Positions 12,037 through 54,931 of a stretch of 56,627 nt of DNA are shown piece by piece. The translations under genes and the position numbers were made by a program. The notes beneath the pieces are model-generated. The model was not told the DNA's origin, ran no database searches, and saw nothing but the letters and a program-made list of their open reading frames with translations. Location of the stretch: assembly GCA_964394835.1 (NCBI GenBank), contig CAYMZA010000002.1, forward strand, positions 1 to 56,627, written 5' to 3'. This DNA is from an uncultured Gammaproteobacteria bacterium. Lineage in GTDB: Bacteria; Patescibacteriota; Patescibacteriia; UBA1558; GWA2-36-10. Numbering within the stretch: the stretch's first letter is position 1; each line of letters begins with the position of its first letter.

Positions 12037-13614
12037 TTAAATTAAAGAACTACTTGTCATTTCAGGTGGTTTTTTTAACCCCATTATTTTTAATATAGTT
12101 GGAGTAACGTCTGATAATACTCCAACAGGTGTAATACTACTTAAATCTTTACCAGACACTCCTGTTAAAACACTTTTACCTGTAAACTGCTGCCCTATTA
12201 TAAATAAAGGAACGGGATTATTAGTATGTTCTTTATCTATTATACCAGTTTGTAAATCATACAGTTTTTCAGCATTACCATGATCAGCAGTAATTAAAAC
12301 AACTCCATCATAAGACAATGTTGTATCAACTAATTCTCCTACTAATTGATCTAATATTTCTATAGCTTCAATAGTAGCTTTTATATTACCCGTATGACCA
12401 ACCATATCTGGATTAGCGTAGTTTATAACTATAAAATCATATAAACCCTCTTTAATAAATTGCATTGTCTTAGAAGTGATTTCACGAGCTGACATAGCTG
12501 GTTTTTGATCAAAAGAAGGAATACTAGGAGATGGTACTAATATTCTATCTTCTCCCTCAAAAATAGTTTCCTTACCTCCATTAAAAAAATAAGTAACATG
12601 TGCATACTTATTAGTTTCAGCAATATGTAATTGTTTTAAACCTGCATCAGATATTACCTTAGCTAAAGGTACATCTATTGACAATGGTTTAAATGCTACT
12701 ATAGCTGGTAAATCTTTTTCATACTCTGTCATAATAACCATTAGTAGGTTTTTATAGTAACTCTGTTCAAACTTTTCAAAACCAGGAACTATTAATGACT
12801 TAGTTAATTGTCTAGCTCTATCTGATCTAAAATTAAAGAAAATGACAGCATCATTGTCTTGTATAGTGCCTTTAGGATTATCATTTTCATCTGTTATAAC
12901 AATAGGCATAAATTGTTCATCATACACTGAATTATCATATGAATTTTGTATAGCTTGTAAAGGATTAGAAGATTTTTCTTTAGATTGACCATTAACTATA
13001 GCATTATATGCTAAAGAGGTTCTATCCCAATTATGATCTCTATCCATAGCATAGAAACGACCTGCTAAACTAGCTATACTACCTATACCAATTTCCTTTA
13101 TTTTGTCTTGTAATTTATTAATATATTCTAAAGCTCCATTATATATTGTATCTCTACCATCTAAAAAAGCATGAATATATACTTTTTCTATATTTTCTTT
13201 TTTAGCTAATTCTAAAATAGCATACAAATGTTCATTATAACTATGAATACCACCATCACTAACTAAACCCATAATATGTAAAGCACTATTTTTTTCTTTT
13301 GCATGATCACATGCTTTTAATAATCCTTCATTCTTAAAAAAATCTTTACTAATAATATCTTTAGTAATTCTAGGTAAGTATTGATATGGTATTAATCCAG
13401 ATCCTAAAGAAAGGTGTCCTACTTGAGAATTACCCATTTCTCCCCAAGGTAAACCAACTGCTTCACCACTAGCTGATAATGGCATAATTGGATAATTAGA
13501 AGCATACTTATCAAAATTAGGTGTTTTAGCTAAAGAAATAGCATTAGCTCTAGAAGAAGGAGCAATACCAAACCCATCTAATATTATTAATACAACTGGT
13601 TTAGGTCTATTCAT
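12037..13614 (-). CDS. gpmI: 2,3-bisphosphoglycerate-independent phosphoglycerate mutase, copy A
   Basis: LDGFG, GNSQVGH (catalytic Ser), SDGGIHS, DGRD, GRFYAMDRD, FNFRSDRARQ, KYAHVTYFFNGG, NPDMVGHTG and TADHGN motifs are all present. Confidence 0.9.
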   Translation of the reverse strand: MNRPKPVVLIILDGFGIAPSSRANAISLAKTPNFDKYASNYPIMPLSASGEAVGLPWGEMGNSQVGHLSLGSGLIPYQYLPRITKDIISKDFFKNEGLLKACDHAKEKNSALHIMGLVSDGGIHSYNEHLYAILELAKKENIEKVYIHAFLDGRDTIYNGALEYINKLQDKIKEIGIGSIASLAGRFYAMDRDHNWDRTSLAYNAIVNGQSKEKSSNPLQAIQNSYDNSVYDEQFMPIVITDENDNPKGTIQDNDAVIFFNFRSDRARQLTKSLIVPGFEKFEQSYYKNLLMVIMTEYEKDLPAIVAFKPLSIDVPLAKVISDAGLKQLHIAETNKYAHVTYFFNGGKETIFEGEDRILVPSPSIPSFDQKPAMSAREITSKTMQFIKEGLYDFIVINYANPDMVGHTGNIKATIEAIEILDQLVGELVDTTLSYDGVVLITADHGNAEKLYDLQTGIIDKEHTNNPVPLFIIGQQFTGKSVLTGVSGKDLSSITPVGVLSDVTPTILKIMGLKKPPEMTSSSLI

Positions 13615-15174
13615 TTATTTTTTAATTAAAGATTTTCCTGTCATTGATTTAGGCTTTTTTATATTTAAAATATCTAATATAGTTGGTGCTATATCAGCTA
13701 ATTTACCTATTTTCTCTAATTTATATTTATGCTTGTTGATTATAACAAAAGGAACTAAATTAGTAGAGTGTTTGGTTATAATTTCATTTGTTTCATTATC
13801 TATCATTTCTTCAACATTACCGTGGTCAGATGTTATTATAACAGTACCATTTTTCTTAAATACTGCTGATACAATTTTACCAACTTCTTTATCTACAATC
13901 TCAATAGCTTTAATAGCTGCTTCAATATTACCAGTATGACCAATCATATCCGGACTAGCATAGTTTAGGGTTATAAAATCAAATTTTTTATCTTTTATAG
14001 CTTTAACTACATTGCTAGTAACAAGTTTAACACTCATGCCTGGTTTTTGATCATATGTACTAATATCTTTAGAAGGAACAGATATTCTTTTTTCTTTTAC
14101 AACTGGATTATCATAGCCTCCATTGAAAAAATAAGTTACATGAGCATACTTTTCTGTTTCTGCAATATATAATTGCCTATACTCATTTAAAGCTGTTGTT
14201 AATGAGTTTGGTATGTCTATAGCTGGATAAGCTGTTAAAATATGATCTAATCCTGCACCAAAGTCTGTTAAAGCAGTAAAGAATAAATTTTTAACTTTTT
14301 TATTTCTTTTAAAAGAATTTTCATTCTCTTTTTCAAAGTTTTGCTGTGCAAATGTTTTACTCAGTTGTCTGGCTCTATCTGATCTTAAATTAAAAAATAC
14401 TATAGCATCATTATCATTTATTGGACCAATAGGTTTTTTATCTTTACCAACTATAACTGAAGGTAATATAAACTCATCACTCTCTCCCCTGTTATATGCT
14501 TGATTAACAGCTTCAATGCTATTAGGAACTGATACACCACTACCTTCTGTAATAGACTCATATGCTAATTTAGTTATTTTCCAATCTCTCTTCCTATCCA
14601 TAGCATAGAAACGACCTATAATAGTAGCTATTTTAACTCTTTTACTATTAAATACATCTTTATATTTATCTAAAATTTTTAAAGCAGAAAATATATGACT
14701 ATCACGACCATCTGTAAATAAATGAAGATAAATATTTTGTTTAGTATGTTCAGTAAAAAAATCAATCAAAGCTAATATATGATCATTATCTGAATGAGGG
14801 CTTTGATCTTCTGATAATAATCCCATTAAATGAATGTCTGATTTATTATCATTAACATGTTGAGCTGTTTGTAAAAAAGCAGGATTCTTAAAAAAAGTAC
14901 CATTCTTAATACTCTTATTTATTATAATAGAATCTTGAGGTATTATTCTACCTGCTCCAATATTCATATGACCAGCCTCTGAATTACCCGGTTGTCCGTC
15001 TGGTAAACCAACATAGTGTCCTGAAGCATGTAAGTGAGCATGAGAATACTCTTTGCATAATTTATCTATATTAGGTGTCTTAGCCAAAGCTATAGCATTG
15101 CCCCTTATTTCTTTACTAACACCCCAACCATCTAAAATAATTAAAACTAATGGTAAAATATTATTATTCTTCAT
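13615..15174 (-). CDS. 2,3-bisphosphoglycerate-independent phosphoglycerate mutase paralog, copy B (divergent)
   Basis: Same family motifs (LDGWG, GNSEAGH, DGRD, GRFYAMDRK, FNLRSDRARQ, KYAHVTYFFNGG, SPDMIGHTG, TSDHGN), but SDGG(V/I)HS is replaced by SEDQSPHS. Confidence 0.8.
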   Translation of the reverse strand: MKNNNILPLVLIILDGWGVSKEIRGNAIALAKTPNIDKLCKEYSHAHLHASGHYVGLPDGQPGNSEAGHMNIGAGRIIPQDSIIINKSIKNGTFFKNPAFLQTAQHVNDNKSDIHLMGLLSEDQSPHSDNDHILALIDFFTEHTKQNIYLHLFTDGRDSHIFSALKILDKYKDVFNSKRVKIATIIGRFYAMDRKRDWKITKLAYESITEGSGVSVPNSIEAVNQAYNRGESDEFILPSVIVGKDKKPIGPINDNDAIVFFNLRSDRARQLSKTFAQQNFEKENENSFKRNKKVKNLFFTALTDFGAGLDHILTAYPAIDIPNSLTTALNEYRQLYIAETEKYAHVTYFFNGGYDNPVVKEKRISVPSKDISTYDQKPGMSVKLVTSNVVKAIKDKKFDFITLNYASPDMIGHTGNIEAAIKAIEIVDKEVGKIVSAVFKKNGTVIITSDHGNVEEMIDNETNEIITKHSTNLVPFVIINKHKYKLEKIGKLADIAPTILDILNIKKPKSMTGKSLIKK

Positions 15175-17606: not shown

Positions 17607-17984
17607 TTATTTCTTTTTTGGTGTTGGTATAAATACTGATTTAACATTAGATAACTCTACTAAAGGACATAAACTATCTTTAGGAATATCAGATTTAACA
17701 TAATCAAATAGCCAAGTACCATTATTTAAATTAATACCTAAATTATCTAAAGTTAATTTAATATTATCTTCTAATGGAAGCTTTTTAAAGCTAATAAAAG
17801 CAGATATTGTTTCTATATCTCTATCTAGTTCTAAGATTGAGGAAGATATTTTATTAACCTCACACTCTAATGTTGTACTTAAAGTTTGAGTAAAACTAGC
17901 ACCCTTTTTATTCATTAAGAATATAATACCAATTATTACACAAAAAATGATAATAAAAAAGAGAAAGAAATGTAATATTTTCAT
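17607..17984 (-). CDS. Hypothetical membrane-anchored protein, first gene of the pgk-eno-gpmI operon
   Basis: 125 aa, N-terminal TM helix, 3-nt gap to pgk; no family recognised. Confidence 0.5.
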   Translation of the reverse strand: MKILHFFLFFIIIFCVIIGIIFLMNKKGASFTQTLSTTLECEVNKISSSILELDRDIETISAFISFKKLPLEDNIKLTLDNLGINLNNGTWLFDYVKSDIPKDSLCPLVELSNVKSVFIPTPKKK

Positions 17985-18003
17985 ATATTTATATTATATA
18001 ACC

Positions 18004-18012
18004 ATTATACCA
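18004..18012 (-). promoter_or_regulatory. Extended -10 element (TGgTATAAT) for the glycolytic operon
   Basis: Minus strand TGGTATAAT, 19 nt upstream of the ATG at 17984. Confidence 0.5.
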
Positions 18013-18074
18013 CCTTTGAATAAGGAAATAAAGGGGTTGTTGTTTAAAATATACATGAAAATATATACAAAATC

Positions 18075-18094
18075 TTTAGCTAATATTAGCTAAA
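18075..18094. repeat. Perfect 20-bp palindrome TTTAGCTAATATTAGCTAAA, copy 2 (24-bp palindrome with flanks, 18073-18096)
   Basis: Exact self-complementary sequence between the divergent glycolytic-operon promoter and the RNA promoter. Confidence 0.95.
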
Positions 18095-18104
18095 GATATG
18101 CTAC

Positions 18105-18133
18105 TTGACAAGATTATATATATGTGCTAATAT
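18105..18133 (+). promoter_or_regulatory. Near-consensus sigma70 promoter driving the orphan RNA
   Basis: TTGACA (18105-18110), 17-nt spacer, TGcTAATAT (18125-18133). Confidence 0.6.
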
Positions 18134-18139
18134 AATATA

Positions 18140-18407
18140 TTGAACATTACAGGATACTTTGACTATGAGGATTCCGGAAAAGTAAGGGACAGTCGTAGTG
18201 CTGCGATTTCTAAGTTATTTTTTGCTATCAAGAGTGGCCCGTGCCCCGAAGATAGCTATCCTGGCCCCGGAGAAATAAATGGGTACTAAGATAACCTTAC
18301 TTTCCTCACCGTCAAACCAAAAAAGCAGATAACATCTGCCTAGTACCACTCACCAGTTGCCATAAATGCAACAAAGCTTAACAAAGACTGGTGGGTGGTC
18401 TTTTTTT
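18140..18407 (+). ncRNA. Unclassified structured small RNA candidate (about 270 nt)
   Basis: ORF-free gap. G+C is about 45% over 18161-18320 by my hand count, against AT-rich flanks. A 20-bp interrupted helix pairs 18158-18187 with 18295-18316. A terminal 13-bp hairpin (18347-18359 / 18388-18400) is followed by U7. The G.U pairs would be C.A mismatches on the other strand. Confidence 0.55.
18319..18339 (-). terminator. Intrinsic terminator of the histidine kinase transcript
   Basis: Minus strand GCAGAT-GTT-ATCTGC followed by TTTTTT; lies inside the 3' part of the plus-strand RNA candidate. Confidence 0.6.
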
Positions 18408-21186
18408 ATTTCTTTTCTAAATATACTGGTAATATAAATTGAAACACACTACCCCTTCCCCTACCATCACTTTCTGCCCAAATCTTACCACCATGCTCTT
18501 TTATAATCTTCTGTGCAATAAATAATCCTAAACCAGATCCACCAGTATGAATCTGAGCAACACCACTACCTCTAACAAACTTTCTAAAGAGTGTTTTAAC
18601 TTCATCTTTTTCTATACCTATGCCAGTATCTTTAACTTGAAAATTTAATATTTTTCTTGAACAAGAAACTAAAAGTGTTATTTTACCTTTTTGTGTATAT
18701 TTAATAGCATTATCTACTAAATTAAGTACAACATCTCTAATCTTGTCACTATCTGCTAAAATTAAAGGTACTTTTTTACATGACTGAGTATATTCTAGTT
18801 TAAGTTTTTTACTATTAGCTTGATTACTTAATTCTGAAATAACACTTTTAATCAACGGATCTATATCTAATGGTTGTTTATCTAATTTTAATCTTCCAGA
18901 TTCAATACGAGATACATTTAAAAATATATCTATTAATCTAGCCAAACGAGAAGAACTATCAAATAGATCATTAGCTACTTTTTTAATTTTTTTAGGTACC
19001 CTACCAAAATCTCCATCTAAAATCATAGAAAGATAACCTTTTATAGCAGAAACGGGAGTACGTAATTGATGAGAAGCTATAGACAAAAACTCAGATTTAG
19101 TTTTATCAAGAGTTCTTAAATTAACATTAGCTTCTTGCAATTCCTTATTAATAACTTGTAAATTATCATACAGTCTTAAATTACGATATATAATACCAAC
19201 TTGATCAGCTAAAGATGTCATTGTTTCAATATCTAAAGAAGAAATATTATCTTTCTTTTCTTTTAGAAGAAAATGGATTAAACCAATAACCTTACCTTCT
19301 GAAATAATTGGTACACCTATAACTATATTAGTATCTAAACTATGCTGTATTTTATCAATAATATTTTTATCAACTGGAGGACAAAAAAAGTCAGACATTT
19401 TATTAGAAGAATACATTTTATTATCTACTATAACTTTAGCACCTAAATTATATTGACTATCTAATTGAGCAAGAAATTTCTTTGGGTCTTTTTTCAATAA
19501 TTGTATAACTGGTTTAGTAATACTATTTTCTGTTAAAGCTACAGCTGAAAAAGTTTCTTTATCTTTATTTACAAAACTTAAAACTCCACCAACATACCCT
19601 AATTCTGAAGAAATACTATCCACAACTAATTGAATACCTTTGTTTAAATCAAGAATACGACTTAATTTATTAACTATATTCTGCATACCAGAAAGAAACT
19701 TATTACGTTTTTCTAAGGCAATATTAGCTTGTCCTAAACTCTTTGTTTTTTCTTTAACCTTAAATTTTAATTCTTTATTCAATTCTTCAACTTCTTCATA
19801 CAACTTAGATTTTTCAATAGAAGTAGCAATTTGAGGAGCTAAAACCTTAAAAAAATTAATATCTTCTTCATTATATAAATCTCCAGAATTTTTAGAAGAG
19901 ACTATAAGGATAGAATTTAATTTATTATTTTCAATAACAGGAATATACATTTCTGCTTTATTTTTTTCTGCTTCAATAATAAATTTATCAAGTTTTTTTA
20001 CTTCCACACTATCTAAATCAGTATACTCACCTTTTTTAATAATTAATTCTTCTAAAATAATAATATCTTTATTATTTTCTAAGTAACTTACAGTTTCTTT
20101 GGATAAACTAATTTTTTTAGAAGAACCATTGATATAGTTTAAATGATTATTAACCATCACAGCAATTGACACATTCTTTATTTTCAACTCTTTTGATAAA
20201 AATATACTTAATTTAGATAATAATGATTCTAGATTAATTTCACTAGCCATTACCATACCTGCTTTTTGTAAAACTAATTGATAATTTATCTTATCTTTAT
20301 AAAATATAGAATCCGTAACTTTGGCCCATACTTTTTTAACAGGATCTAAGAACAATACTAAAATTATACTATTAAAAATATAAACTAAAATCTTACCTGT
20401 TCTTGTATGAGCTCCTAGATAATTACCAGCTATAAATACCGATAAAGCAAAGAAACTAGCGACAGTACCAACTAAAATAGCATAAAGAACACTACGAGTA
20501 ATTACCAAACGAATATTCATTAAACGATATTTAATAATCGCATAGAATATAAATCCAAACATTATAATAGTAAAAAATGGACCAGCCCAAACATATCTAT
20601 AATTAAAAAATGGTAAAAATAAATTAAAAAAAGAACCAAATATTAAAGCAGTAGATGTTCCTATAAAAACATATTTCAATTTTAATCTACTTATCTTATC
20701 TGCTTCACGATATTTAATTAACCAGATTATAAAAGAAGCTACAATGTAAAATGTAAAATAAAAAACATAAAAGATATAAGCAGACCCTAAAGTAACATCT
20801 TTACCCCAATTCATAATAATTATTTGAGAAAAATGATAATTAGTAAAGTATAAGAAATAAATAATAAATAAAACTGGTATAAATGTTATAAACCTAAACA
20901 AGAAATTAACTTTTATTTTTTTAAAAGGAAAGTAAATAGAAAAAAATAAAAATTCATAAGCAATTAAAGCAGCTATTAAATAATAAAAACGAACAAAGTG
21001 TTTAGCTGTTTCTATATTATTAACATACAAAAAACCTAAAATACCAAAAGTCCATAAAGCACCACTAATAACTAATAAACCATACCAAATATTGGCAGGT
21101 GCTTTTTTATTCTTCATCCAAACAATTAAACCTAAAAATAGATTTAATAATCCAACAAGAAATAATAATATATTTATATTGATCAT
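18406..21186 (-). CDS. Sensor histidine kinase with N-terminal polytopic (7TM-type) domain, GAF-like domains, HisKA and HATPase_c
   Basis: About 8 hydrophobic helices in aa 1-290; H-box SIASHQLRTPV; N-box NLVDNAIKYT; G-boxes DTGIGI and GGSGLGL. Confidence 0.85.
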   Translation of the reverse strand: MININILLFLVGLLNLFLGLIVWMKNKKAPANIWYGLLVISGALWTFGILGFLYVNNIETAKHFVRFYYLIAALIAYEFLFFSIYFPFKKIKVNFLFRFITFIPVLFIIYFLYFTNYHFSQIIIMNWGKDVTLGSAYIFYVFYFTFYIVASFIIWLIKYREADKISRLKLKYVFIGTSTALIFGSFFNLFLPFFNYRYVWAGPFFTIIMFGFIFYAIIKYRLMNIRLVITRSVLYAILVGTVASFFALSVFIAGNYLGAHTRTGKILVYIFNSIILVLFLDPVKKVWAKVTDSIFYKDKINYQLVLQKAGMVMASEINLESLLSKLSIFLSKELKIKNVSIAVMVNNHLNYINGSSKKISLSKETVSYLENNKDIIILEELIIKKGEYTDLDSVEVKKLDKFIIEAEKNKAEMYIPVIENNKLNSILIVSSKNSGDLYNEEDINFFKVLAPQIATSIEKSKLYEEVEELNKELKFKVKEKTKSLGQANIALEKRNKFLSGMQNIVNKLSRILDLNKGIQLVVDSISSELGYVGGVLSFVNKDKETFSAVALTENSITKPVIQLLKKDPKKFLAQLDSQYNLGAKVIVDNKMYSSNKMSDFFCPPVDKNIIDKIQHSLDTNIVIGVPIISEGKVIGLIHFLLKEKKDNISSLDIETMTSLADQVGIIYRNLRLYDNLQVINKELQEANVNLRTLDKTKSEFLSIASHQLRTPVSAIKGYLSMILDGDFGRVPKKIKKVANDLFDSSSRLARLIDIFLNVSRIESGRLKLDKQPLDIDPLIKSVISELSNQANSKKLKLEYTQSCKKVPLILADSDKIRDVVLNLVDNAIKYTQKGKITLLVSCSRKILNFQVKDTGIGIEKDEVKTLFRKFVRGSGVAQIHTGGSGLGLFIAQKIIKEHGGKIWAESDGRGRGSVFQFILPVYLEKK

Positions 21187-30968: not shown

Positions 30969-31976
30969 TTATTCAATTATTAATTTTTCAGAGCTGTCTA
31001 TAATCTCAATCCAAGTTTTACCAGGAATTAAATTAATTTCCTCACCTTGTTTAGTATAATATCTTGTAATATTATCTACTACCTTCCATTCACCTTCTTG
31101 TTTTCCTAAAGAATTAAATACATACACTTCACCACCTTGTTTAGTTTTCATTCCCCTTCTTTCTTCATCGATATAGTAAGAATCAACTATCTGTACTATT
31201 ATATTATCAGCTACGGTTTGATCACCTGTATTGTAGATAAACTTATCTCCCCCTTGATATCTTTGATATACATCTAATGTATTATTATACTTCCACTCAA
31301 CTAAGTAATATTTATTAGAAAAGTTAATTTTAATATTTTCAACAATATCTTCTTTTACTTCTTTTTCAACAAAGTTTAAAGTACTAGTCGTAATATTCCC
31401 CACCTCTTTTAACTCACCTGCTCTTAAATAATTAGCTGAAGATGTAAATACATTATGAGGTGGATACAATTTATTATCTCTCCAAAAATATATTTCTCCA
31501 GCACCTATTTGATTAACATCTTTAAAATTATAAGTATGTATATCACACAAAGCTTGAGGACTACCACCTACATGCATATACAACCCATTATATTCTTCTG
31601 CCCAATCCATAAAATATCCACGAGCAGACCTTACGGGACCTATTTTACTAACTTCAGTATTACTATTGAATACAGCTAATAGTCTAGTTATATTAGCTTC
31701 CACCAAAGCTTCATAGATAATATCTGCTTTATTTAACCCAACTTGAGGCCAAATATCATAACTATTATCTATTGCTACAACAACAGGGAAAAAATCTATA
31801 CTCTCTACTATACTGCCATTTAATGGATGTCTTAAAACATCTTCATGTTTTATCTCTTCTTTAATTATTTCATTATTTTCACTATTATCTTTAGAAGTAG
31901 AATATATAGAAAGTAAAATAACTGCTATACAAATAGCAGCTATAATTACATATATTTTCATTCTAGATAAGAACAT
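30969..31976 (-). CDS. DUF3048-like secreted/membrane-anchored protein (YerB-like)
   Basis: N-terminal TM/signal anchor; PVRSARGYF and YFWRD-type segments recalled from DUF3048 proteins. Confidence 0.55.
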   Translation of the reverse strand: MFLSRMKIYVIIAAICIAVILLSIYSTSKDNSENNEIIKEEIKHEDVLRHPLNGSIVESIDFFPVVVAIDNSYDIWPQVGLNKADIIYEALVEANITRLLAVFNSNTEVSKIGPVRSARGYFMDWAEEYNGLYMHVGGSPQALCDIHTYNFKDVNQIGAGEIYFWRDNKLYPPHNVFTSSANYLRAGELKEVGNITTSTLNFVEKEVKEDIVENIKINFSNKYYLVEWKYNNTLDVYQRYQGGDKFIYNTGDQTVADNIIVQIVDSYYIDEERRGMKTKQGGEVYVFNSLGKQEGEWKVVDNITRYYTKQGEEINLIPGKTWIEIIDSSEKLIIE

Positions 31977-32680
31977 TACTTGTCTTCTTTATTTTCTTCA
32001 CCCTCTTTTACTTCTTCTCCTTCTTTCTTTTCTTCACCTTCTTTTACTTCTTCTCCTTCTTTCTTTTCTTCACCTTCTTCACCCTCAACAACTTCTTCTT
32101 CTGGTTCTTCTTCAATAATTTCTAATTTTCTAGGTATAACAACACCAGCTACAGGATCATTAGGATTATTTAACACTTTAACATTTTCATAAACATCTAA
32201 TTGACTAATTAAAATCATTTGACCTATATCTTCTAATTTAGATATATCAACATTAATTTGAGAAGGTAAATTACCAGGCAAACATTTAATATTAACTTCA
32301 TTATTTTTAATATCCAACTTAGCACCTAACTCTTTAATAGCTTTAGAGGCACCCACAAACTCTAAAGGAACAACAGTTGTTATTTCTCTATCTTCTGTTA
32401 TAGCCAAAAAATCAATATGAATTAATTTATCAGTAACAGGATGTTGTTGATAATCTCTAACTATAGCTTTTACTTCTTTCCCATCTAAATCTAAAGATAT
32501 AATATTACTTTTACCTGCTTGTTTTAACACATTAAGCAAAGCATTGTAATCTATATCAATAGCTTGACCTTCTTTTTTGTAACCATAGATAATACCAGGA
32601 ACCCTATCTTCTATCCTAGCTTTAGTTAACATACTATGTTTACCAATTTCTCGTTTTTCTACTTTTAGTGTAAATTTCAT
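31976..32680 (-). CDS. rplY: 50S ribosomal protein L25 / general stress protein Ctc with acidic repeat tail
   Basis: L25/Ctc N- and middle domains (RVPGIIYG, QQHPVTDKLIHIDF); C-terminal E/G/K repeats. Confidence 0.85.
   Translation of the reverse strand: MKFTLKVEKREIGKHSMLTKARIEDRVPGIIYGYKKEGQAIDIDYNALLNVLKQAGKSNIISLDLDGKEVKAIVRDYQQHPVTDKLIHIDFLAITEDREITTVVPLEFVGASKAIKELGAKLDIKNNEVNIKCLPGNLPSQINVDISKLEDIGQMILISQLDVYENVKVLNNPNDPVAGVVIPRKLEIIEEEPEEEVVEGEEGEEKKEGEEVKEGEEKKEGEEVKEGEENKEDK
31996..32085. repeat. 36-bp tandem repeat, about 2.5 copies, inside the rplY 3' end
   Basis: 31996-32031 and 32032-32067 differ at one base; a partial third copy follows. Encodes EGEEKKEGEEVK units. Confidence 0.9.
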
Positions 32681-54552: not shown

Positions 54553-54931
54553 GGGGATGTTTCATATTCGATGCTTGGTGAAATAATAATAAGCAAGTAA
54601 AGTTCACGATTCTTTAAAATCGTATAAAATAATTGCAAAAAACATATTTGCTAAAGCTAAAGAGCTTTTCAAAGTTCCGCAGCTTTCACCAGTCTTAGCA
54701 TAAAATTGCTTTGACCGTTTCTAGGTAATTTGCCTGAAATTATCCATGAAACGTCATAAACTCAGGCTCGAGATATTTAGTGTTGATATGAATATCTGAC
54801 ATTTAATCAACTTAGATTACTGACTTTTTGTTAATTTTAAAGTTTTTAATTAAATCATCAAATTAACTAAACTTGTAGAAAATTATTAAGCAGCTTAGTA
54901 GACAGGGGTGTGATTCCCCTCATCTCCACCA
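54553..54931 (+). ncRNA. ssrA: tmRNA (SsrA)
   Basis: 5' GGGGATGTTTCATATTCGATG and 3' GGACAGGGGTGTGATTCCCCTCATCTCCACCA form a tRNA-Ala-like domain with a G3.U70 pair. The tag ORF at 54635-54700 encodes AKNIFAKAKELFKVPQLSPVLA, followed by TAA. Confidence 0.9.

Follow-up and report, generated by a model that had tools for sequence, protein, structure and literature searches.

An intergenic gap in a 56,627-nucleotide (nt) contig of an uncultured marine bacterium (CAYMZA010000002.1; the whole stretch is referred to here as the window) carries what is very probably (about 85%) a real plus-strand gene for a structured RNA, positions 18142 to 18407 and about 265 nt long, that represents a new family not included in Rfam. 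The gap (positions 17985 to 18405, 421 nt) lies between a minus-strand operon beginning with ORF125 and pgk and a minus-strand histidine kinase gene. A preliminary description, made from the letters of the window, had proposed an orphan RNA with its own promoter and terminator at this place, and conserved signals in three alleles support an independent plus-strand gene. The locus has the layout of a generic stand-alone small RNA gene, i.e., its own promoter, an intrinsic terminator, no conserved open reading frame (ORF) and conservation among relatives. The small RNA family is new, its general kind is familiar, and its known range is very narrow, comprising only three closely related lineages of uncultured marine Patescibacteria (Candidate Phyla Radiation [CPR]).

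Three distinct alleles were compared: W, in the window (18142 to 18407, plus strand); A, at locus L004 (3646 to 3891, minus strand), which is identical in L004 and L006 to L008; and B, at locus L005 (371 to 625, minus strand). L004 and L005 represent related marine metagenome lineages, and the window is identical to marine metagenome scaffolds in ENA. Sample names suggest anoxic marine water columns of the Cariaco type as the source waters. The RNA gene is the most GC-rich intergenic stretch in the window, whose overall G+C content is 27%. The G+C fraction is 0.447 in each of the 150-nt segments 18150 to 18299 and 18200 to 18349, against approximately 0.2 to 0.3 in the flanks, and the highest value over 100 nt at the locus (0.51, from 18174) exceeds that of every other intergenic gap, including the gap that holds the transfer-messenger RNA (tmRNA) gene (0.41). 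No ORF at the locus is credible: one of 49 amino acids (aa) on the plus strand and one of 44 aa on the minus strand are not conserved in L004 or L005. A small-protein reading was rejected, as no ORF is common to the three alleles. The GC scan and the comparison of ORFs across alleles agree with the preliminary description of a GC-rich gap lacking ORFs, and its coordinates and sequence strings all match the window sequence.

The promoter predicted to read into the gene, described at the outset as near consensus, obtained the best score in the promoter scan, and its geometry is kept in the three alleles. The -35 block (ACTTGACAA) is invariant, and the -10 hexamer, which is TAATAT in the window, TACAAT in L004 and TAGAAT in L005, stands 17 nt from it in every allele despite substitutions in the spacer. 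Promoter-like sites are not rare in the scan (10 found versus 7.5 expected). An octamer, GAACAUUA, begins 8 nt past the -10 hexamer in each of the three alleles and is followed by approximately 8 variable nt. We infer that transcription starts at this octamer (position 18142).

The hairpin proposed for the 3' end of the RNA was found as described, with 13 bp (arms at 18345 to 18357 and 18387 to 18399) followed by U7 at 18401 to 18407, and the 3' module is kept in the three alleles. Most positions of the terminator stem differ between the window and L004 with pairing kept, and U7 is invariant. Predicted energies of the 3' module are -32.3, -29.2 and -31.0 kcal/mol on the plus strand of the three alleles (z scores of -4.9 to -6.2) and -29.5, -25.3 and -26.7 kcal/mol on the minus strand. 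An A-rich linker of 25 to 30 nt carrying a small hairpin separates the terminator from P1, the outermost helix of the core. Judged by its sequence, this small hairpin (18341 to 18323) is likely to be the intrinsic terminator of the histidine kinase mRNA when read on the minus strand, and an internal hairpin of the RNA on the plus strand. With the kinase terminator located within the RNA gene, the convergent transcripts are expected to overlap by approximately 88 nt, the last ~88 nt of the RNA being complementary to the 3' untranslated region (UTR) of the kinase mRNA. A convergent overlap had been suggested in the preliminary description, and the minus-strand terminator-like hairpin bears this out.

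The RNA is predicted to be highly structured. Over positions 18140 to 18407, the plus strand folds at -81.1 kcal/mol (z score of -4.2, with none of 200 shuffles as good), whereas the minus strand has a z score of -2.6; corresponding values for the L004 copy are -77.8 kcal/mol (z score of -6.6) and, for its complement, -66.9 kcal/mol (z score of -3.0). The minimum-energy fold common to L004 and L005 consists of P1 (8 bp), P1b, a 5' bulge of 6 to 8 nt, P2 and a three-way junction, in which GAC, hairpin P3 and an arm formed by P4, P5 and P6 are closed by UAA. The outer helix segments first recognized in the window are P1 (UUUGAC at 18158 to 18163 pairing with GUCAAA at 18311 to 18316), P1b (UGAGG at 18166 to 18170 with CCUCA at 18304 to 18308) and P2, and covariation supports them better than any other part of the structure. 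The P1 strands are UUGGUCGC and GCGGCCAA in L004 and UUGGUUGC and GCAACCAA in L005. The interior had been drawn as a continuous rod, which did not hold, as L004 and L005 fold around a three-way junction from which a covarying hairpin branches. Similarly, the pseudoknot between the bulge and CCGGA (18267 to 18271) is specific to the window allele, in which the bulge is AUUCCGGA; the corresponding bulges read ACAUAA in L004 and AAAAAAA in L005.

A covariance model built from L004 and L005 alone matched the window copy on the plus strand (32.9 bits, E = 2.8e-6). In the alignment fitted with the covariance model, pairing holds in 98.5% of cells, and both partners have changed in 16 of 50 pairs, while slid controls gave at most 5 and none of 500 shuffles reached the observed values. 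Helix 1, i.e., P1 and P1b (12 pairs, 4 changed on both sides), and helix 2, i.e., P2 (8 pairs, 5 changed on both sides), are each paired in 100% of cells; helix 4, i.e., P4, has 7 mostly invariant pairs and 95% of cells paired. Hairpin P3, flanked by invariant GGGAC and UUCU, is the clearest case of covariation, being AGCUAUG-GCGU-CAUAGCU in L004 with four of its seven pairs changed on both sides and two on one side. P1 and P3 were also recovered by RNAalifold from a plain MAFFT alignment, with 13 pairs showing compensatory change. The stems vary by compensatory substitutions while the junction strands stay fixed, with GGGACAG, UUCUrAGU and GAUAACC invariant in the three alleles. A GGA/UCU extension of P3 is a possible competitor to P4. 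Kissing between the P3 and P6 loops was considered by inspection and rejected (3 bp possible in L004, disrupted in L005 and lacking in the window allele).

Fold energies, G.U pairs and the orientation of the signals favor the plus strand as the functional one. There are two to five G.U pairs per allele in the core, two or three in the terminator stem and two to four across the whole 3' module. The G.U argument for the plus strand in the preliminary description thus stands in general terms, but the three main helices contain no G.U pair in the window, where such pairs are located in the terminator stem and the P3 hairpin. Coordinates of all features are collected in Table 1.

Table 1. Features of the RNA gene and its surroundings in the window
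Feature	Position	Strand	Remark
RNA promoter, TTGACA, 17-nt spacer, TG-extended TAATAT	18105-18133	+	Top site in promoter scan, 10/12 plus TG
Octamer GAACAUUA, probable transcript 5' end, predicted single-stranded	18142-18149	+	Same in three alleles
P1 (UUUGAC) and P1b (UGAGG), 5' strands	18158-18170	+	Pair with 18304-18316
5' bulge AUUCCGGA	18171-18178	+	6-8 nt; position conserved, sequence not
P2 5' strand AAAGUAAGG	18179-18187	+	Partner 18295-18303
Junction GAC and hairpin P3 (AGUCGUA-GUGC-UGCGAUU)	18188-18208	+	GGGACAG invariant
P4 5' strand UCUAAGU in invariant block UUCUrAGU	18209-18215	+	Partner 18285-18291
Variable apical arm	18216-18284	+	In the window, GC-rich insertion including GCUAUC...GAUAGC hairpin
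P4 3' strand ACUAAGA, junction UAA and P2 3' strand CCUUACUUU (18295-18303)	18285-18303	+	GAUAACC invariant
P1b (CCUCA) and P1 (GUCAAA), 3' strands	18304-18316	+	Partners of 18158-18170
Small hairpin with minus-strand U run	18323-18341	-	Terminator-like site in scan; GCAGA/UCUGC invariant in three alleles
RNA gene terminator, 13-15-bp stem, 28-38-nt A-rich loop, U7	18345-18407	+	Range over three alleles
Intergenic block with RNA gene, kinase terminator and promoter region of ORF125-pgk-eno-gpmI operon	17985-18405		Only in clade of window, L004 and L005
ORF125-pgk operon promoter region, TTCAAA-16-TATAAT	17993-18020	-	10/12; divergent from RNA promoter
Operon of ORF125 (no Pfam match), pgk, eno and two cofactor-independent phosphoglycerate mutase (iPGM) genes	17984-12037	-	
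HisKA_7TM/GAF histidine kinase	18406-21186	-	

Searches with Rfam assigned the RNA to no known family. At the gathering score, the whole window contains one tmRNA and two tRNAs and nothing at the locus; at E ≤ 10 (search space of 400 to 500 nt), each of the three alleles gave only chance-level matches to microRNA and small nucleolar RNA models, MicX and a terminator look-alike of the PyrG leader. Rfam also found nothing in five related loci. The models for 6S RNA (RF00013), signal recognition particle (SRP) RNA (RF00169 and RF01854) and RNase P RNA (RF00010 and RF00011), which had been named as the families to check, did not match the window, L004 or L005 copy at E ≤ 10. The initial statement that the sequence resembles neither RNase P RNA, SRP RNA nor tmRNA is therefore confirmed at both thresholds, and the suggestion of 6S RNA gained no support.

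Structural comparison gave the same picture. The two-sided central bubble of 6S RNA is absent, as the 3' side of the junction consists of 3 nt (UAA) and its 5' side is the covarying hairpin P3. SRP RNA, whose helix 8 has a GNRA tetraloop and conserved symmetric and asymmetric loops, was rejected since the apical loops are GACG, GACA and AGCU, rather than GNRA, and the apical arm is not conserved among the alleles. RNase P RNA, which has a P4 pseudoknot and the strings CR-I to CR-V, was rejected on size (a core of 146 to 162 nt versus 330 to 400 nt) and on the lack of a GAGGAAAGUCC-type string on reading the sequence. A tmRNA would have tRNA-like ends and a tag reading frame; the tmRNA of the window sits elsewhere (54553 to 54931, 95.9 bits in Rfam), and ARAGORN finds nothing at 18140 to 18407; this tmRNA gene, on the plus strand with 31% G+C, also went undetected by ARAGORN on the same window. 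A hammerhead-like or thiamine pyrophosphate-like reading of CUGAGU...GGAUAA was discarded, as the window has CUAAGU and Rfam gives no support. An RNA of a mobile element (miniature inverted-repeat transposable element, intron, retron or omega/bridge RNA) was likewise rejected: there are no convincing terminal repeats or extra copies, and the neighbors are kinase and glycolysis genes.

The history of the locus can be read from syntenic relatives. In L091, L092 to L094 and L095, whose phosphoglycerate kinase (PGK) is 62 to 65% identical, the gene order is the same, i.e., methyltransferase (absent in L095), kinase, ORF123, pgk, eno, iPGM and iPGM, and only 3 to 8 nt separate the kinase stop from the ORF123 start (8029 to 8033 in L091, 9626 to 9628 in L092 and 3651 to 3658 in L095). 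As kinase and ORF123 are nearly contiguous in these relatives, the whole 421-nt block is, on this comparative evidence, a recent insertion specific to the clade of the three alleles that split an ancestral kinase-ORF-pgk string. The same evidence makes the RNA a young, narrowly distributed gene rather than a missing housekeeping RNA that occupies an ancestral locus. The spacer of L098 measures 113 nt (1371 to 1483) and contains a GTGGTATAAT promoter block but no RNA gene; this locus may represent an intermediate step of the insertion. Within the operon promoter region of the window, TGGTATAAT is conserved at 18012 to 18004, and the block ATTATACCAC is invariant in alignments and is also found in the L098 spacer. 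The window also has a perfect 26-nt palindrome (ATCTTTAGCTAAT-ATTAGCTAAAGAT, 18072 to 18097) in the interval that separates the divergent promoters, 8 nt ahead of the RNA -35 hexamer. The palindrome looks like a candidate operator for a dimeric regulator; it sits in a stretch of approximately 40 nt that only the window allele contains and that L004 and L005 lack, and it was flagged by the terminator scan as a weak minus-strand hairpin. Downstream of the enolase gene, the operon contains tandem iPGM paralogues on the minus strand (12037 to 13614 and 13615 to 15174), a duplication kept in L091, L092 and L095.

The RNA core has changed rapidly. Between alleles W and A, the core (18158 to 18318) is 53 to 55% identical, compared with 72 to 78% for third codon positions of the kinase, ORF125 and pgk genes and 79 to 91% for the proteins; between A and B, the core is 85% identical and third codon positions 82 to 85%. 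Episodic selection or allele replacement by recombination are possible causes of fast divergence of the core with pairing kept.

Nearest named homologues of the PGK belong to Patescibacteria/Parcubacteria, which on sequence similarity places the host, an uncultured marine organism, among the CPR bacteria. The GTDB-representative metagenome-assembled genome (MAG) with the locus, L004 (CAYZIE010000001.1), is titled "uncultured Gammaproteobacteria"; the relatives of its PGK and kinase are all Patescibacteria, and the title is probably a taxonomic mislabel. Sampling of the lineage is thin: a search with ORF125 (125 aa) among 5.8 billion proteins found just three clusters, and one GTDB genome has the locus. 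ORF125 itself (17607 to 17984, minus strand) matches no Pfam family and carries a hydrophobic helix at its N terminus, and its homologues always lie between kinase and pgk; gene callers place its start 23 codons later (102 or 100 aa), while relatives favor the long form. Further copies of the RNA were sought in several ways. PGK and kinase protein searches with contig look-ups recovered syntenic relatives, all without the RNA; a PGK search of JGI metagenomes gave a best match of 49% identity, and none of its 80 loci was useful for finding further RNA copies. No further copy turned up when nhmmer and covariance model R2 were run over approximately 0.56 Mb of related and unrelated loci, and neither the window nor a set of 88 loci contains a second one. 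The motif pattern had no matches in viral contigs, and blastn found none among phages and plasmids.

The mechanism that we rank first, although at somewhat less than an even chance, is that the RNA works by binding through its fold. A conserved sigma-70-type promoter and a conserved intrinsic terminator bracket a predicted transcript of approximately 265 nt, in which the 5' and 3' parts of a ~160-nt core pair as a long closing stem (P1-P1b-bulge-P2) opening into the junction. The RNA would act in trans, the three-way-junction fold of its core serving as a platform that binds a protein or a small ligand, with the single-stranded octamer and the A-rich linker as possible extra contact or base-pairing sites. 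A second effect is conceivable from the geometry of the locus, in that the kinase mRNA and the 3' end of the RNA could pair over the region of overlap. The gene arrived within the insertion, together with the terminator of the kinase and a new promoter for the operon. RNAs that act through their fold typically have closed ends, a junction that does not change and stems that are free to vary, and the binding-platform mechanism is ranked first for this reason. Orphan structured bacterial noncoding RNAs offer a comparison, for example the raiA motif RNA (compared only via Rfam), which is similarly transcribed independently and has a multihelix junction with invariant junction nucleotides, covarying stems, no ORF and no obvious cis target. 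The RNA described here differs in having no sequence or covariance-model similarity to it, and in its phylum, much narrower distribution and simpler fold.

Several observations weigh against both the gene and this mechanism. Searches yielded only three distinct sequences, and the figure of 98.5% paired cells with 16 doubly changed pairs comes from an alignment fitted to the structure, in which three sequences provide little statistical power for covariation. The minimum-energy fold of the window allele is itself a rod, with the junction fold 1.9 kcal/mol worse, and its apical arm cannot be aligned helix for helix with P5 and P6 of L004 and L005. Divergence of the RNA at or above the synonymous rate of flanking genes could reflect weak constraint rather than function. 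In addition, the promoter, terminator and structured core are predictions from sequence, any binding partner, ligand or target would be hypothetical, and base pairing, not the fold, is how most bacterial small RNAs with such a layout work.

The last of these points leads to an unlikely alternative, in which the RNA is a trans-acting base-pairing small RNA with the octamer (perhaps together with the A-rich linker or the large loop of the terminator) as its seed and a junction domain that only stabilizes the molecule. The promoter, intrinsic terminator and lack of an ORF are what such RNAs usually have, and the 5'-terminal octamer is invariant with variable nucleotides directly behind it, although, given the divergence, a run of eight unchanged positions is only mildly unlikely. 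An AUG is present in the complement of the octamer, UAAUGUUC, and the sole sense-strand match to it in the window (31971 to 31978, minus strand) falls exactly on the TAATG stop/start overlap of the L25 (31976 to 32680) and DUF3048 (30969 to 31976) genes. However, this match covers just 8 to 9 bp and is not significant, as approximately 0.2 start-codon matches among 7 would be expected by chance (an estimate). A simple seed model also leaves unexplained a 20-bp closing stem around a junction of invariant strands.

Less likely again is a cis-antisense or insulator module, in which the insertion would end kinase transcription and restart that of the glycolytic operon, and the RNA would regulate the kinase through 3' UTR pairing or transcriptional interference. 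The insertion does separate a formerly contiguous kinase-ORF-pgk string, the kinase terminator is within the RNA gene with the resulting complementarity of ~88 nt, and conservation is among the highest in the overlap block CAAACCAAAwAAGCAGA...AUCUGC. Two terminators within the overlap would account equally for its conservation, however, and L098, with an operon promoter in its short spacer and no RNA gene, indicates that uncoupling needs no RNA. Nor does antisense action need a 160-nt covarying junction domain upstream of the overlap. The nearest known arrangement is GadY, which lies opposite gadX in Escherichia coli as a convergent cis-encoded small RNA overlapping the 3' UTR of its neighbor. 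Both RNAs are placed tail to tail with a protein gene and have a 3' region complementary to the 3' UTR of its mRNA. Unlike that of GadY, the overlap here consists of two nested unidirectional terminators predicted from the DNA sequence only, and most of the RNA, including the core, lies outside it.

It is improbable that the locus is a functionless remnant of inserted or mobile sequence, with hairpins that are only terminators and a structure that reflects drift among close relatives. The very narrow distribution and recent insertion would fit, as would divergence at or above the synonymous rate in only three alleles. Under drift, however, the 16 double substitutions would not be expected to all keep pairing when slid controls reach at most 5, nor would the promoter geometry be kept or invariant blocks persist amid fast-changing stems. 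The absence of terminal repeats, of other copies and of any phage, plasmid or viral match also argues against a mobile remnant.

An orphan riboswitch, with the junction as aptamer and the terminator as an expression platform gating antisense read-through into the kinase, is very improbable. An aptamer-like invariant junction is indeed followed by an intrinsic terminator, but there is no plus-strand gene downstream, where only the antisense strand of the kinase lies, and inspection revealed no antiterminator pairing common to the three alleles. The terminator is strong and is separated from P1 by the hairpin-bearing linker. No riboswitch family matched the three alleles at E ≤ 10, and no known aptamer class matches. 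The locus invites comparison with EutX/Rli55, small RNAs with an adenosylcobalamin (AdoCbl) aptamer beside a two-component system, to which it is similar in having an aptamer-like junction in a terminated small RNA beside a sensor kinase gene. It differs in that there is no match to a known aptamer, no ANTAR-type pair of hexaloop hairpins, no adjacent response regulator and no conserved switching helix seen.

Least probable of all is a highly divergent housekeeping RNA (6S, SRP or RNase P) missed by Rfam models in a CPR lineage, since the strong promoter, the GC-rich stable fold and the known divergence of many CPR RNAs are outweighed by the lack of any Rfam match at E ≤ 10 in the three alleles, of a two-sided central bubble, of a GNRA-capped helix 8 motif and of P4/CR-I strings, by the empty locus in syntenic relatives and by the small core. 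The resemblance to 6S RNA (ssrS) is superficial. In 6S RNA, a large central bubble imitates an open promoter; the molecule is bound by the sigma-70 holoenzyme and serves as the template for product RNA (pRNA). Like 6S RNA, the RNA described here has a stand-alone gene with a strong sigma-70-type promoter, an irregular closing stem of approximately 20 bp and a second irregular stem beyond a region that is unpaired or forms a hairpin, and it is GC rich and stable, with a sequence that evolves fast while the structure is kept. Unlike 6S RNA, it has no large two-sided bubble, a core of 146 to 162 nt rather than a rod of ~180 nt, no match to RF00013 and a range of three lineages rather than nearly all bacteria.

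The fold-dependent mechanism can be taken further, to a doubtful proposition: the RNA may be the founding member of a new fold-dependent class, serving as a ribonucleoprotein scaffold or a ligand sensor in Patescibacteria, and born or captured with an insertion that rewired the kinase-glycolysis string. Stems that outpace synonymous sites around a fixed junction would then point to selection for changing specificity and not to simple upkeep of the RNA.

Patescibacteria are a large bacterial group with tiny genomes and few regulators, and a full-text literature search found no work characterizing their regulatory or structural RNAs. The locus provides a clean CPR example, with a covarying, GC-rich RNA that has a strong promoter and lies in a block which divided an ancestral gene string, and its history is unusually readable, as syntenic relatives show the empty state and one of them a possible intermediate. 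The three-lineage range limits its present importance, and its value lies mainly in being a rare documented CPR RNA gene and a datable gene gain. If the junction core does bind a protein or metabolite, the RNA would represent a new class; if it does not, the locus would still record the datable gain of a small RNA gene.

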